DNA from: Candidatus Latescibacterota bacterium
GTDB lineage: Bacteria; Latescibacterota; UBA2968; UBA8231
Assembly (NCBI GenBank): GCA_965261395.1
Contig: OZ253462.1
Span: 6,464,001 to 6,528,000, forward strand
Direction: 5' to 3'
Length of the DNA stretch: 64,000 nt
The first letter of the stretch is position 1; each line of letters starts with the position of its first letter. The position numbers and the translations under genes are program-made. Positions 31,884 to 43,641 of this stretch are shown piece by piece. Below the pieces are notes generated by a model that was given only the letters and a program-made list of their open reading frames with translations, did not search any database and was not told the DNA's origin.

Positions 31884-32660
31884 TCACGGCGCATCCGATG
31901 AGCTGGCTTTTTCCAATTCGGGCAGCAGCACGTACTTGACCCAACCAAAACCTGGATTGATTTCAAGCGCTTTTTCAAAGGCTGCTCGCGCCAATTCCAA
32001 CTCACCTCGATCCTGGTAAGCGATGCCGAGCCAAGCGTAGGCTTCGCTGTGCCCCCATACTGGCTGGATGGGATCGGTGGGCTCTTCTTGGGCAAAGAGT
32101 TCGGTGGCGCGCTGGAGCCCTTGCAGACCCTTTTCTTTGCTTCCACCAAACATTTTGGGGGTATTAAAATCGCTGATGGCCGCGCTCAGTACCACGCGCG
32201 GATTGTCGGGGGCGAGTTGCTTGGCTTTTTGGCTGGCCTTTCCAACTTTGGGGCCTATGAACATGCTTTTCATAGGACTCAGGCCAATCTGTAGTCCGTA
32301 CGCGCTCGACAGCAAGGCATAAGCTTCGGCTGCTTGTGGGTCAATCTCGGTAGCCTTTTTCAAGTGCTCGACCGCGGCTTTGAGGTGCTCAGAAGCCTGA
32401 TCTTTGCTTTCTTCGCCCAATAGGCTGGCAATGCGGTAATCGGCCAAAGCGATGTAGTAGTGTCCCCACGCAGCCAAGCTAGTATCGGCCAAGGCGCGCT
32501 CGAACGTGGCTCGCGACGCATACATCGCGTCGAGATCGCTTGCATTTTCACCGGCTTGCAGCATCTGTCTTCCACTGACGATAAGACTGTCGGCCGGTTG
32601 GGCAAGGGTGGGATAGGTGATCGAGAAAATGAAAACAAGTGAGAGCAGAAAGCGTAGCAT
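31884..32660 (-). CDS. secreted TPR protein; paralog of the C-terminal domain of 34935..36623
   Basis: signal peptide; DNPRVVL...TPKMFGG.KE; TPR-like helices. Confidence 0.8.
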   Translation of the reverse strand: MLRFLLSLVFIFSITYPTLAQPADSLIVSGRQMLQAGENASDLDAMYASRATFERALADTSLAAWGHYYIALADYRIASLLGEESKDQASEHLKAAVEHLKKATEIDPQAAEAYALLSSAYGLQIGLSPMKSMFIGPKVGKASQKAKQLAPDNPRVVLSAAISDFNTPKMFGGSKEKGLQGLQRATELFAQEEPTDPIQPVWGHSEAYAWLGIAYQDRGELELARAAFEKALEINPGFGWVKYVLLPELEKASSSDAP

Positions 32661-32681
32661 AAGTGGCCCCTTTGTTTAAGG

Positions 32682-34928
32682 TCAATAGTTCAAGGAAACG
32701 GTGGTGCCAAAGTAAATGGATCGGCGAAAGAGGGTGGTGCGGGGCTGGCGCTGGGTATAGTCGATGCTGTAGTCATAGTCGAGCACATTTGCGCGATTGA
32801 GCAAGTTGTTGACCGCCAAGTAGAAGACCGCTTGGTGCCCGGAGCCAAAGAAATGCACATAGCTCAACTGTCCATCTATCTGTTGAAAGGACGGCAGCCG
32901 TTCTGAGCCAACAGGTCCTTCCACGGGCAGGTAGTAGCTTTTGTTTGCTACGGGAACGGCACCGACGATTGGCGTGATGGGGCGACCGGTAGCGTATCTC
33001 AGCGTCAGGCCGCCGCTGAGGGAGCGGACGATCTGCATTTTTGTAACCAAGGTCAGATTGTGCGTGATATCAAACGGCGAAGGGGCTTCTTCGCGGAGCA
33101 TCTCAAACCCTATGTGGCGCACCTGCAATCGGCGCGACCTCAGCAGACTATAGGCCATCCACCCGCTCAAACGCGTATTGAGAAAACCGCCGTACTTACA
33201 AAAGAGGTCAACACCAGAAGCCCGGCCTCCATCAGCATTTGTAAGGTTCAGGTCGGAATCATCTATGACGAGATTGCGGTAGGGTTTGTAGTAAGCCTCC
33301 AACCGTACTATGAATTGTCCGCGTTCGTGATGCAAGCCGCCTATCCAGTGTTGGGCGCGCTGAGGCCCTAGATTGGGGTTACCGCTGGTGGGGTTGTATT
33401 CAAATGGGGCGGGGAATTGGTGATAGATGCCCCACGCGAGGCGGGCGTTTGTGTCTTCTGAGAACTGGTATCGCGCAGACAGGCGCGGATCTAGGACAAA
33501 ACCGCCGCTCAAGCTGTGGTGGTCGGCGCGCATACCGACATTGGCGACAATGCGACGCAGGGGTCTGAAATCGACCTCAAAGTAGGCACCCGTGCGTCTG
33601 GCGCTATAGGAGGTGTCGAGTTCAAAAACCTCTGCCTCGGGGTCGAGAATATCGCCTTGAGGAATGCTGCCTACGAAGCGGTTGTCAGCGTGCTCCATTT
33701 CAGCACCGAGGCGCAATATCCCGAAAGTATCGAGGACGCGTTCCCAGTCCGTGCGAATCTTGCCGGTCAAGTCGCGGGGGGTCAGATCTAGGTTGCCCAA
33801 TTGCCGCCGGGTCGCGTGCCGGTTCAGTGAGGCACTGGTCTGGATGAACCAACCGGCCAACACATCCGTCCACTGGAGATTGTGCAAGGCTCTATCAGTG
33901 CGGCTTCGATACAGGCCGTCAAAGGAAGGCTCTGCAACCTGTACGCCAAGTTCCTCGCCAGCGTCGAAGCTGAAGAGCTTGAGGCGTCCGGTAGGCGAGT
34001 ACTGGTAGATCAGGTTGAGGTTTCCGTCGTGTCCTCGTGGAGGCGTGGTGAATGCGTCGCGGTGTCCATTGACGCGGAACAGGAGATCGGTAAAGCTCAG
34101 ATTGCCCGTGGAGCGCAGGCCGAGCTTATCCTCAATAAGGGGCAAGTCGAGGCCCACAGAGCCGGCACCCAGACCCAAACCAAGCTTATAGCTCCGTTGT
34201 ACGGGCATGTCTAGGCTCTCCATTGCCAGTACCGCAGAAAGCGCATTGCCGTAGCGCGCCGAGAATCCACCGGTGGAAAAGGTCGTACCCTGCACCATAA
34301 AGGGAGGAATCGTGCCGAATACTCCGCCAGTGGGCGATTCGTATCTGTAGGGATGCACCACCGTGGCTTGATCGAGCAAGATGACAGTCTCACTCACGTC
34401 GCCCCCTCGGACGAAAAGACCGGCACCGTCATCTACGGTGGCAACGCCGGGAAAAGTCTTGAACGCGCGAAAGATATCGGCAGAAGCCCCAGGCGTTGTG
34501 ACCACATCTAAGGGGGCAAGGGTAACGGTCTCATCCTCCCCCGTGGTATAGGTGCTAACTGTAACGACGGTTTCACCGAGCTCAATGAGGACGCGCCGCA
34601 GCACCAAACGCACCGTGGTGGTATCGCCCGCAGTTAAGTGCAGGGTCTGCCGGGTGGGTTCAAAGCCGATGAAGGAGGCGCTCAAGTCGTGTGGTCCAAG
34701 GTGCCGAGTGAAAAAGGCAAAGTGGCCGTCGCGGCTTGTTATTGCACCGTCGGTGGTCTCGACGATTTGTACGTTGACAAAGGCCATCGGTCGTTCTGTC
34801 TCATCGACGACCTGTCCCTGGATAAATGCCTGACTCTGGGCAAAGACCTGCCCGCTGTGCAGACTAGTGAACAGGGAAACGCAAAGCAGGACAATCCCGA
34901 CTTGTCGAGCGGTACATCTTTTATTCAT
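32682..34928 (-). CDS. TonB-dependent receptor with N-terminal carboxypeptidase-regulatory-like domain
   Basis: IQGQVVDE; plug motif PGV...LFVRGG; FSTGGFSARYGNALS; PRLSARY; C-terminal NNLLNR.. Confidence 0.9.
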   Translation of the reverse strand: MNKRCTARQVGIVLLCVSLFTSLHSGQVFAQSQAFIQGQVVDETERPMAFVNVQIVETTDGAITSRDGHFAFFTRHLGPHDLSASFIGFEPTRQTLHLTAGDTTTVRLVLRRVLIELGETVVTVSTYTTGEDETVTLAPLDVVTTPGASADIFRAFKTFPGVATVDDGAGLFVRGGDVSETVILLDQATVVHPYRYESPTGGVFGTIPPFMVQGTTFSTGGFSARYGNALSAVLAMESLDMPVQRSYKLGLGLGAGSVGLDLPLIEDKLGLRSTGNLSFTDLLFRVNGHRDAFTTPPRGHDGNLNLIYQYSPTGRLKLFSFDAGEELGVQVAEPSFDGLYRSRTDRALHNLQWTDVLAGWFIQTSASLNRHATRRQLGNLDLTPRDLTGKIRTDWERVLDTFGILRLGAEMEHADNRFVGSIPQGDILDPEAEVFELDTSYSARRTGAYFEVDFRPLRRIVANVGMRADHHSLSGGFVLDPRLSARYQFSEDTNARLAWGIYHQFPAPFEYNPTSGNPNLGPQRAQHWIGGLHHERGQFIVRLEAYYKPYRNLVIDDSDLNLTNADGGRASGVDLFCKYGGFLNTRLSGWMAYSLLRSRRLQVRHIGFEMLREEAPSPFDITHNLTLVTKMQIVRSLSGGLTLRYATGRPITPIVGAVPVANKSYYLPVEGPVGSERLPSFQQIDGQLSYVHFFGSGHQAVFYLAVNNLLNRANVLDYDYSIDYTQRQPRTTLFRRSIYFGTTVSLNY

Positions 34929-34934
34929 TGCGTA

Positions 34935-43111: not shown

Positions 43112-43264
43112 TTAGTTAAAGAAAGACGTGGTCCCAGCGCAGCAGCAGCAGCAGCAGCAGCAGCTAGATGCAACAGGCTTGTCAGGAGATTCCTTGTCAG
43201 AAGAACCACCTTTTGCCGGCGACATATAGCTATCAAAAGGCTTCGATACGATTCTGAGTTTCAT
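43112..43264 (-). CDS. RiPP precursor peptide 1 (50 aa, Cys8): MKLRIVSKPFDSYMSPAKGGSSDKESPDKPVASSCCCCCCCCAGTTSFFN
   Basis: RBS AAGGAGG before ATG 43264; heterocyclisable core; adjacent to YcaO/SagB genes. Confidence 0.9.
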   Translation of the reverse strand: MKLRIVSKPFDSYMSPAKGGSSDKESPDKPVASSCCCCCCCCAGTTSFFN

Positions 43265-43293
43265 AGTGCGTTCCTCCTTGGCTCGATCAGCCA

Positions 43294-43365
43294 TTAGTTT
43301 TTTAGCCGGTTGAATGCGACACAGCAGCAATGGTAGCAACAGCCGGCCGCTCTGTTTGCTTCCAT
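43294..43365 (-). CDS. putative Cys-rich upstream mini-ORF 1: MEANRAAGCCYHCCCVAFNRLKN
   Basis: manual translation; its TAA overlaps an ATG (TAATG, 43294) in frame with precursor 1; no clear RBS. Confidence 0.4.
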   Translation of the reverse strand: MEANRAAGCCYHCCCVAFNRLKN

Positions 43366-43641
43366 GTTTTGGATACTGCTGATGGTTTAAAGCACGGCTG
43401 AGGCCTCAGCGGGAACAAAAGCGAAAAACATGCCAAGAAGCACGCCGGATAGACTAAGCCGCCGTAGATATTCGCTAAGTCCTTGGAATTAGGTCGGTTA
43501 GCCAATATAGACTGCTTTTGACCTCAGTCTCCGCTCCAACTGGGCGCTACGCTTGGGCGTATCGCCTCCGCAACACCATTGTCGTCCAAGAGATACAGAA
43601 AAAGCAGCTACGGCACCACTTCTACCCACACCCGCATTTGA

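Follow-up and report, generated by a model that had tools for sequence, protein, structure and literature searches.

Gene clusters of the streptolysin S/listeriolysin S (SLS/LLS) group (sag, lls, clos and bor) encode the C (E1-like), D (YcaO) and B (FMN dehydrogenase) components as discrete proteins, along with an ABC transporter and a CaaX-like protease (PMC4603692), and a short precursor peptide that has a variable tail and 9-10 heterocyclizable residues in a contiguous row (PMC4513790). An operon of 11 genes with the same outfit lies on the minus strand at positions 31884-43435 of the window, the 64,000-nt stretch of a Candidatus Latescibacterota bacterium genome analysed here (contig OZ253462.1, positions 6464001-6528000). 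It differs from the SLS/LLS group in its unmatched leader family, in precursor scores that all stay below the cut-off, in an extra degenerate SagB-like subunit, in a HusA-like domain carried by the ABC ATPase, in the presence of a TonB-dependent receptor (TBDR) together with a free HusA-like protein, in the His and Asn residues of sister-species cores, and in its Latescibacterota host. Judged by gene content and core, the operon is closest to the SLS/LLS group of azole peptides (linear azole-containing peptides or thiazole/oxazole-modified microcins, LAP/TOMM); since the curated precursor models reject its precursors, it is not filed here as a member of the cytolysin group.

Methanobactin is a ribosomal copper-binding peptide that, once secreted, re-enters the cell by a TonB-dependent transporter encoded in its own cluster; its chemistry is the oxazolone-thioamide formation by MbnBC and not YcaO azole formation, and it has no HusA-like carriers. 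The operon shares with it the logic of a cluster-encoded TBDR beside a ribosomal peptide, a metal role being putative here. The microcin B17 synthetase McbBCD likewise comprises an E1-like protein, a YcaO protein and an FMN dehydrogenase, which work on a Gly/Ser/Cys-rich core, and McbC is among the structural matches of the SagB and of the SagB-like model described below; the operon departs from it in gene order, in its leader, in the lack of a Gly-spaced core in the window and in its export and receptor parts. HusA of Porphyromonas gingivalis (6BQS/6CRL) is a haemophore-like protein that binds haem, and metal-free porphyrins more tightly, in a hydrophobic groove without iron ligation, and that was proposed by its authors to pass porphyrins to the TBDR HusB (PMC6173696); husA (PG2227) adjoins husB (PG2226) (PMC11681262). 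The all-helical TPR-like fold, the gene beside a TBDR and the N-terminal segment resembling an export signal recur in the operon, in which the fold occurs twice, once on the ATPase of the peptide exporter, and in which the TBDR is likened to HusB by the position of its gene. An added ATPase domain is known from the O-antigen exporter WzmWzt, another ABC-2 pump, which recognises its cargo through it (PMC9445017); that domain is a carbohydrate-binding beta fold, whereas the one here is a HusA-like helical fold for which cargo binding is only inferred.

We tentatively read the locus as a working, vertically maintained SLS/LLS-type operon joined to a HusA/HusB-like carrier and receptor, whose HusA-like modules may carry the polyazole product through export, capture and TonB-dependent re-uptake in the manner of a metallophore; we rate this reading a little under even. 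SLS-type azole clusters are familiar as toxin clusters from Gram-positive pathogens and from spirochaetes, and the present host belongs to an uncultured diderm phylum. The sequence-only reading of this stretch had found the layout unfamiliar in a diderm lineage. That view needs qualifying, as SLS-like clusters have been described in diderm Spirochaetes (PMC4513790, PMC4603692), antiSMASH surveys list 'LAP' clusters without detail in Latescibacterota metagenome-assembled genomes (MAGs) (PMC12993501) and a high biosynthetic potential has been reported for Latescibacteria (PMC9426513); we found no paper that describes this cluster. Literature searches likewise gave no account of the present leader, of poly-Cys/His cores within the phylum, of a HusA-like domain on an exporter of peptides that ribosomes make and that are modified after translation (RiPPs) or of a TBDR-linked azole peptide, and the biosynthetic gene cluster tables of the surveys (PMC9426513, PMC12993501, PMC11832590) may list the cluster.

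Biosynthetic genes and precursor peptides

Four sequence-level features of LAP/TOMM clusters are present: a YcaO protein, an E1/ThiF-like partner, a dehydrogenase of the SagB/McbC type, and precursors with a leader and a Cys/Ser/Thr-rich core. The YcaO protein scores 151 bits against PF02624 and 205.9 bits against the SagD family TIGR03604, below the cut-off of 219.25. It aligns with LynD, MusD and TruD in the Protein Data Bank (PDB), and its acidic motif stretches GESVER and EIIERDA and its C-terminal PGPFPFP match LynD; 63 columns are invariant over 10 homologs, down to 35% identity. The ThiF-like protein reaches 40 bits against PF00899 (cut-off 28.1), matches the SagC family TIGR03603 at 4.4e-13, below the cut-off, and finds MccB in the PDB at 1e-7. 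From the roles of their families, these two proteins would cyclodehydrate the Cys run of the core, and perhaps the flanking Ser, to thiazolines.

The oxidation of thiazolines to thiazoles would be the task of SagB, again by family membership. This protein scores 149.7 bits against TIGR03605 (cut-off 78.4) and carries an RTSVR (RxSxR) stretch; its closest solved relative is 3eo7, which has two tandem nitroreductase domains (1.5e-25), followed by ThcOx/CyaGox (3.5e-9), BmdC and McbC (5.4e-4). Two SagB-like proteins had been announced by the sequence-only reading, and one of them is thus a true SagB. The other is degenerate: it reaches 23 bits against TIGR03605 (cut-off 78) and E 0.056 against domain 1 of 3eo7, BLASTP finds no similarity between it and SagB, and no RxSxR stretch is visible in its translation. 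Its motifs AELYHENSK (compare the start of 3eo7) and WRYM..G.RGYR..LLD.G (compare domain 1 of 3eo7) are conserved, distant relatives included, and a structure model of low confidence (pLDDT 58.7) matches the folds of 3eo7, BmdC, McbC and ThcOx, all with TM below 0.4. It is probably the non-flavin half of a split pseudo-dimer and the partner subunit of SagB, with which it would form the oxidising heterodimer. Two distant loci from metagenomes, L031 and L032, also pair a SagB-like protein with a true SagB, which indicates that the split pair is older than the Latescibacterota cluster.

The first two genes encode the precursors, preA2 (MKLRIVSKPFDSYMSPAKGGSSDKESPDKPVASSCCCCCCCCAGTTSFFN) and preA1 (MKLKIVSKPFDGYMSPAKGDSSDGSSSDKPVLASCCCCCCCCIEITIK). 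An AAGGAGG Shine-Dalgarno sequence lies 8 nt ahead of the preA2 ATG, and preA1 sits in a tandem unit of ~330 nt that is 82-85% identical to the preA2 unit. Precursors with the common leader number 31 across 18 loci, and in them the leader MKL(K/R)IVSKPF.GYMSPA is near-invariant and is followed by a linker of 0-22 residues, a hypervariable core and a short hydrophobic tail. The core is C8 or C9 in 12 of the 31; another 12 contain His (CCCCHCHC, CCTCCHCHC, CCCCCHCHCC, CCSCHCNCC, CCSHCSHCSNC and others), three have C5 after a Gly run, three read CCSCSCSSCC, and one, from locus L002, reads CCCNCNCC. The contiguous run is thereby broken across the clade, by His in 12 of the 31 cores and by Asn in one, and amounts to C5 in three. 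In the window, S plus C8 makes 9 contiguous heterocyclizable residues in preA1 and SS plus C8 makes 10 in preA2, and the product may contain up to eight thiazol(in)es. The claim that this Cys run is longer than that of SagA holds for the opening of SagA, which begins with five contiguous Cys, and not for the whole SLS region of 9-10 heterocyclizable residues, with which the 9 and 10 found here are comparable (PMC4513790). The leader family had not been recognised in the sequence-only reading, and indeed no Pfam or NCBIfam model matches the precursors or the leader of the window; against the streptolysin S model, preA1 gives E 1.1 and preA2 no match. The curated family models used for the precursors were TIGR03602 and NF033222.

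Removal of the leader and export would fall, on family grounds, to the CPBP protease and the ABC-2 pump. In addition to its Pfam match, the permease weakly matches the DrrB and SagH families. The translation of the protease shows the stretches EEILWR, FGMNH and HQVFN, which we take to be the motifs of a CPBP protease, and by family it could be the leader peptidase, an immunity protein or both. Family membership thus shows that everything required for an azole peptide to be made, trimmed and exported is encoded in the operon. The earlier description of the stretch as a minus-strand run of these genes, with a YcaO protein that ends in PGPFPFP and two precursors with Cys8 cores, was accurate, the second SagB-like protein being the one amendment: all listed genes were found in place, the translations contain both cores, and the family matches agree with a complete azole-peptide operon of sag-like make-up.

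The HusA-like proteins and the receptor

The last gene of the operon and the C-terminal extension of the ABC ATPase had both been read as TPR proteins. These parts are present, and by sequence and modelled fold they are HusA-like rather than generic TPR. They are paralogs that align end to end with 42-45% identity and 49 invariant columns; residues 1-22 of the free protein are missing from the fused paralogs. The only long single-stretch relative of either in the PDB is chain A of 6bqs (HusA), which a profile finds at 9.8e-13 and which is the top match of the ATPase extension, spanning residues 16-194 of the 201 of the chain. An AlphaFold (AF2) model of the free protein (pLDDT 89.7) superposes in Foldseek on all 201 residues of 6bqs with TM 0.81, the best TM listed, and an rmsd of 2.9 A at ~22% identity. 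Designed TPR proteins obtained better E-values than 6bqs in this search, but their TM was near 0.35. The TBDR has no relative in the PDB at 1e-3. Because of the HusA likeness and the adjoining TBDR, the last two genes of the operon can be regarded as a HusA/HusB-like pair. Prediction of a complex between the HusA-like domain of the ATPase and the unmodified precursors scored 0.01 and gave no answer; the real ligand is presumed to be the modified core.

A FastTree phylogeny of the HusA-like domains separates fused and free clades, and the stand-alone pairs described below fall in the free clade. Each clade contains members from the genus of the window and from G048, a genome of the second family, so duplication and fusion would predate the split of the two families. 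More widely, 560 diverged representatives of the HusA-like family were recovered at E<=1e-30 among 1.84 billion representatives, their only annotation being TPR or hypothetical proteins of MAGs from several phyla. Nearly all of the best 150 of these 560 are 245-300 aa long, and among the same 150 only P0226 (562 aa, match 330-561; scanned for its HusA-like match only) has the length and placement of an ABC fusion. The 120 protein homologs listed for the HusA-like alignment are all close orthologs with at least 71% identity. The 2018 HusA paper contains a passage, available without its beginning, that ends 'only in the genus Porphyromonas'; judged by these matches, the distribution of the HusA fold is far wider than one would expect from its single studied member.

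In many genomes of the genus there is, at another place, a third HusA-like gene that is ~75% identical to the TBDR-linked one; in G134 (L053 5759-6553) it adjoins a sulfatase-like gene, with no TBDR in the stretch read. The genome of the window has only the fused and the TBDR-linked copies.

Conservation of the operon and possible roles of its product

In a scan with one genome per species, 17 loci have a YcaO protein 74-92% identical to that of the window; by label, 15 are Latescibacteria/Latescibacterota, one is Gemmatimonadetes and one Poribacteria (a 2.2-kb contig). All genes stand in the same order between parE and the DEAD-box helicase and gltX genes in 15 of the 17, the other two being truncated contigs, and this constancy indicates that the operon is more than a chance assembly. 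YcaO was found in 22 of 168 genomes of the phylum: in 21 of the 31 from the genus of the window, in none of 45 from other genera of its family, and in one of 22 from a second family. This last genome, G048, has the full set from the ThiF-like gene to the free HusA-like protein, fused ATPase and TBDR included, at 44-66% identity. The free HusA-like gene is present in 34 of 76 genomes of the family, comprising 24 of the 31 in the genus and members of four other genera that lack YcaO, and TBDR and HusA-like genes remain paired in all 15 of the complete genus loci, as well as in G048 and three other genera.

For the working of such a system we propose the following. Modification would yield a conjugated chain, flat and hydrophobic, with up to 8-10 azoles, whose handling would involve three further steps, the weakest of the scheme. 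The HusA-like domain on the pump ATPase, of a fold that is known to grip flat aromatic macrocycles through stacking, would act as a cargo-binding module at the cytoplasmic mouth; the secreted HusA-like paralog would bind the same cargo outside the inner membrane and hand it to the adjoining TBDR; and the product would go out, be captured and come back in, as a metallophore or some other shuttle does, and would not be fired off as a toxin. Re-uptake is favoured because the only studied relatives of the carrier and receptor import, because receptor-only genomes exist and because many sister-species cores contain His. The His-, Asn- and Ser-interrupted cores of sister species suggest metal ligation. 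A fuller version, in which the polyazole is a secreted shuttle, most likely a metal carrier, served by HusA-fold carriers on both sides of the inner membrane and re-imported by its own TBDR, while receptor-only relatives live off producers, is possible, although we would sooner doubt than adopt it as a whole.

Production seems to have been lost in some members of the genus. In two species the YcaO gene is broken, near residue 381-383 in G133 (L015), where the protein is split, and by a TGA near residue 334 in G137; the TBDR of L015/G133 still reads through, and this locus looks like one in which production has decayed and the receptor has been kept. In two further species without YcaO, G141 and G139, ~8.4 kb of unrelated genes replace the biosynthetic half between parE and the TBDR; what is left is the final 74 codons of the fused ATPase gene together with the genes of the TBDR and the free protein. 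Both of the latter genes are intact in G141; G139 has a frameshift in the TBDR and an in-frame TAG in the free protein.

Several observations weigh against re-import of the product. The operon genes include no inner-membrane importer and no TonB/ExbBD gene, and the N-terminus of the free protein is only Sec-like, so that the protein may stay periplasmic. Neither core of the window contains His. The precursors of relatives approach toxin models, below the cut-off in each case: a sister-species precursor, the best in the clade, matches the streptolysin S model at 8.9e-4 (19 bits, cut-off 35), and the distant L031 precursor with its CCTCTCWC core matches the listeriolysin S model at 1.1e-6 (28 bits, cut-off 33). 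Outside the genus, G107, G104 and G167 have the HusA-like gene beside a TBDR 68-84% identical to that of the window and no biosynthetic genes nearby. Identities to the window are 74% for parE and 78% for the TBDR in G107, 74% and 84% in G104, and 71% and 68% in G167, compared with 69% and 62% in G048; in a quick TBDR tree (midpoint-rooted, without a clade test) the G104 and G107 receptors fall inside the genus clade. The HusA-like family is also large, with 10 sampled representatives labelled Gemmatimonadota, Bacteroidota, Chloroherpetonaceae or Acidobacteriota, or unlabelled. Given these stand-alone pairs and the size of the family, the TBDR pair could be a self-sufficient nutrient system. 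Nor does the receptor track the core: the TBDR of the window is 94% identical to that of L002, yet the cores are C8 and CCCNCNCC. Over the span from preA1 to YcaO, the DNA of the window shares 89-94% identity with L001 as against 73-89% with L002; outside this span (CPBP to gltX, and preA2 to parC) L002 is the closer, at 88-97%, and L001 shows 74-93%. A biosynthetic cassette of ~6 kb (window ~37000-43000) thus seems to have been swapped in by recombination, which would explain why the two precursor units are just 82-85% alike, and on these identities the biosynthetic half recombines separately from the receptor half. Finally, the promoter looks to be of the sigma-54 type and is not evidently metal-regulated; a search with an E. 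coli-type Fur-box consensus, allowing up to 3 mismatches, gave 0 matches, a consensus that has little power in this phylum.

The best-surviving alternative is that the product is an SLS/LLS-like cytolysin or bacteriocin encoded beside a HusA/HusB-type tetrapyrrole uptake pair. The two could be independent neighbours or form a 'lyse and harvest' unit, in which other cells lose haem-like nutrients to the action of the toxin and these are gathered by the pair; on this view the fused HusA-like domain would be a tetrapyrrole sensor that gates toxin export, or else a safeguard of the producer. The gene content fits the published definition of the family (PMC4603692, PMC4513790), and the 9 and 10 contiguous heterocyclizable residues of the window cores agree with a feature proposed to define the SLS family (PMC4513790). 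The only characterised HusA binds porphyrins, stand-alone TBDR and HusA-like pairs occur in non-producers, and the sub-threshold matches to the SLS and LLS precursor models point the same way, as do L031 and L032, which keep the enzyme set with a CCTCTCWC core and without a TBDR. All precursor matches nevertheless stay below the curated cut-offs, with none at all for preA2, and across the clade the run is interrupted by His in 12 of 31 cores and shortened to five Cys in three. A HusA-like fusion to the peptide's own pump requires an extra assumption under this explanation. No toxin cluster with a TBDR of its own is known to us, and the literature searches for TBDR-linked azole peptides found none. 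On balance we consider a toxin unlikely, though a serious contender.

The distant loci themselves come from a metagenome scan that gave 22 loci, of which L029 (80%), L030 (39%), L031 (32%) and L032 (31%) were informative; a separate search found further homologs at 45-54% identity. L031 1354-8518 and L032 60-4677 (YcaO 31-32% identical) hold genes for ATPase, permease, YcaO, precursor, ThiF-like protein, SagB-like protein, SagB and CPBP, and no TBDR was seen on these short contigs. Their precursor, MKIKISDRSYDKLESRIDDFKPAAGCCTCTCWCS..., lies near the listeriolysin S model, and their ATPase matches the nucleotide-binding part only, at residues 22-209 in L031 and 93-209 in L032, which begins at the contig end.

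A further alternative is mere adjacency, the TBDR pair being an unrelated nutrient system that adjoins the cluster by descent and the ATPase extension a generic TPR module for protein-protein contacts. TPR motifs are common, the two halves recombine separately, and their GC3 differs: the biosynthetic genes have 45-56%, the TBDR (65%), the free HusA-like protein (60%) and the ATPase extension lie at 59-65%, and the flanks reach 76-79%. Total G+C is 57-63% in the flanks and 45-50% in the operon core. Order, adjacency and fusion are, however, all kept in the second family at ~60% identity and in a different neighbourhood, and the extension, which can be aligned over its full length to both the free protein and HusA, is not a generic TPR module. 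Moreover, the TBDR gene starts 6 nt after the stop codon of the ATPase gene, a spacing that argues for co-transcription; the CPBP and ATPase genes overlap by 13 nt and the free HusA-like gene follows the TBDR gene after 21 nt. With this spacing and an arrangement kept in two families, the link to a TBDR asserted by the sequence-only reading is borne out, and mere adjacency appears improbable to us.

To our knowledge, outward transport by a TonB-dependent transporter is known from the case of Oar and PopC alone. An export relay, in which the cytoplasmic HusA-like domain loads the pump and a periplasmic paralog carries the polyazole to the TBDR as its outer-membrane exit, would suit the same fold on both sides of the inner membrane, the Sec-type N-terminus that is the only signal of the free protein, the operon without an importer and the documented need of Oar for PopC secretion (PMC6434023), but stand-alone pairs in genomes without biosynthetic genes would lack anything to export and HusA/HusB, the only studied relatives, import, and we therefore rank it as very improbable.

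Returning to the carrier-and-re-import reading, a polyazole shuttle would be the first linear azole peptide made by a YcaO enzyme with a dedicated uptake system, and the HusA fold would be a general carrier for flat aromatic ligands and not a Porphyromonas speciality. If the carriers bind the product, polyazole peptides would gain a new use in nutrient or metal shuttling, the widespread and almost unstudied HusA-like family would gain a new ligand class, and relations between producers and receptor-only strains among co-occurring bacteria could be studied in a compact test system. Should they fail to bind it, the cytolysin-type family is enlarged by the operon all the same, and YcaO enzymology gains a naturally diverse panel of contiguous poly-Cys substrates.

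Operon layout, upstream region and neighbouring genes

The operon (Table 1) is flanked by housekeeping genes, gltX and the DEAD-box helicase gene on one side and parE and parC-like genes on the other.

Table 1. Features of the operon in the window, in the order of transcription.
Feature	Position	Strand	Evidence and remarks
Sigma-54-type -24/-12 promoter-like motif TGGCATGTTTTTCGCT	43420..43435	-	pattern match with one mismatch; conservation
Conserved 5' leader of first precursor, ~140 nt	43265..43408	-	sequence conservation; second copy ~42935-43084
Precursor preA2 (A2), 50 aa	43112..43264	-	leader MKLRIVSKPFDSYMSPA, Ser/Asp/Lys-rich linker, core SS-C8, tail AGTTSFFN
Precursor preA1 (A1), 48 aa	42788..42934	-	core S-C8, tail IEITIK
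E1/ThiF-like cyclodehydratase partner (C protein)	41426..42544	-	PF00899 3.2e-10
Degenerate SagB-like protein, 267 aa	40593..41396	-	TIGR03605 3.5e-5 only
SagB-type FMN dehydrogenase	39639..40589	-	TIGR03605 5.7e-44
ABC-2 type permease	38828..39601	-	PF01061 5.3e-25
YcaO cyclodehydratase (D protein)	37355..38818	-	PF02624 6.3e-44; C-terminus PGPFPFP
CPBP/CaaX-like intramembrane protease	36611..37339	-	PF02517 1.5e-18
ABC ATPase domain of fusion protein, DrrA/NodI type	35631..36623	-	PF00005 2.8e-29; TIGR01188 6.1e-59
HusA-like C-terminal domain fused to ATPase, ~230 aa, predicted cytoplasmic	34935..35630	-	PDB 6bqs 1.7e-10
TBDR with N-terminal CarboxypepD_reg domain	32682..34928	-	barrel 9.6e-21; CarboxypepD_reg 1.6e-14; plug 19 bits, below cut-off
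Free HusA-like protein, 258 aa, helical, hydrophobic signal-like N-terminus	31884..32660	-	PDB 6bqs 1.3e-6

Scans of 31500-43900 for sigma-70 promoters and for terminators stayed at chance level (10 found with 11.6 expected, and 15 with 12.6 expected). A motif TGGCA[CT]R-N4-T.GC stands 152-157 nt ahead of the first precursor ATG in all 17 genus loci (the window, L001-L013, L015, L016 and L029) and is absent before all 13 downstream precursor copies and in L018 (G048); in the second copy of the window its GG is changed to AG. The assignment to sigma-54 draws on the consensus match and this conservation only. The genome has 22 genes for enhancer-binding proteins, none of them within the window, and in G048 a fragment of a sigma-54 activator lies ~6.6 kb upstream of the precursor.

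The 5' leader is highly conserved across species and is repeated ahead of the second precursor. Within it are the perfect palindrome GCTGAGGCCTCAGC, a stretch of CAGCAG and a stretch like a row of Cys codons, GCTGTTGCT.CCATTGCTGCTGTG, which is similar to core-coding sequence; the latter could be the relic of an old precursor or a pairing partner for the (UGC)n run. RNAalifold gives a structure of 32 pairs with a compensatory change in only one, and a search of Rfam over 30000-45000 gave no match at E<=1; since the leader sequences are too alike, an RNA structure is not claimed. Two candidate reading frames in this region were rejected. An N-terminally extended precursor (MADRAKEE..MKL) is put out of frame in 4 species by a one-base deletion, and the Shine-Dalgarno sequence lies within the extension; a small upstream ORF with a Cys-rich reading (GCCSHCCC in one frame) is non-coding, its frame being shifted by one-base indels between species.

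The neighbourhood of the operon in G048 differs from that in the genus and contains two radical-SAM/SPASM-like genes, a glycosyltransferase gene, a second CPBP gene and the sigma-54 activator fragment. Upstream, L018 1381-7125 encodes a 490-aa radical-SAM/SPASM protein whose N-terminus is PqqD-like, a 463-aa SPASM-like protein without a Pfam match, a GT4 glycosyltransferase and the extra CPBP protein; these could serve further tailoring of the same peptide or belong to a second RiPP system.

The genes inserted in place of the biosynthetic half were read in G141 only (L025 7379-15489; the same site is L027 in G139). They encode an 893-aa transglutaminase/GT-like protein, a GT2+TPR protein of 856 aa, a 181-aa C39 peptidase, a peptide of 101 aa with a GG motif, a CPBP protein and a Yip1-like protein, and may represent another secreted-peptide system at the same hot spot.

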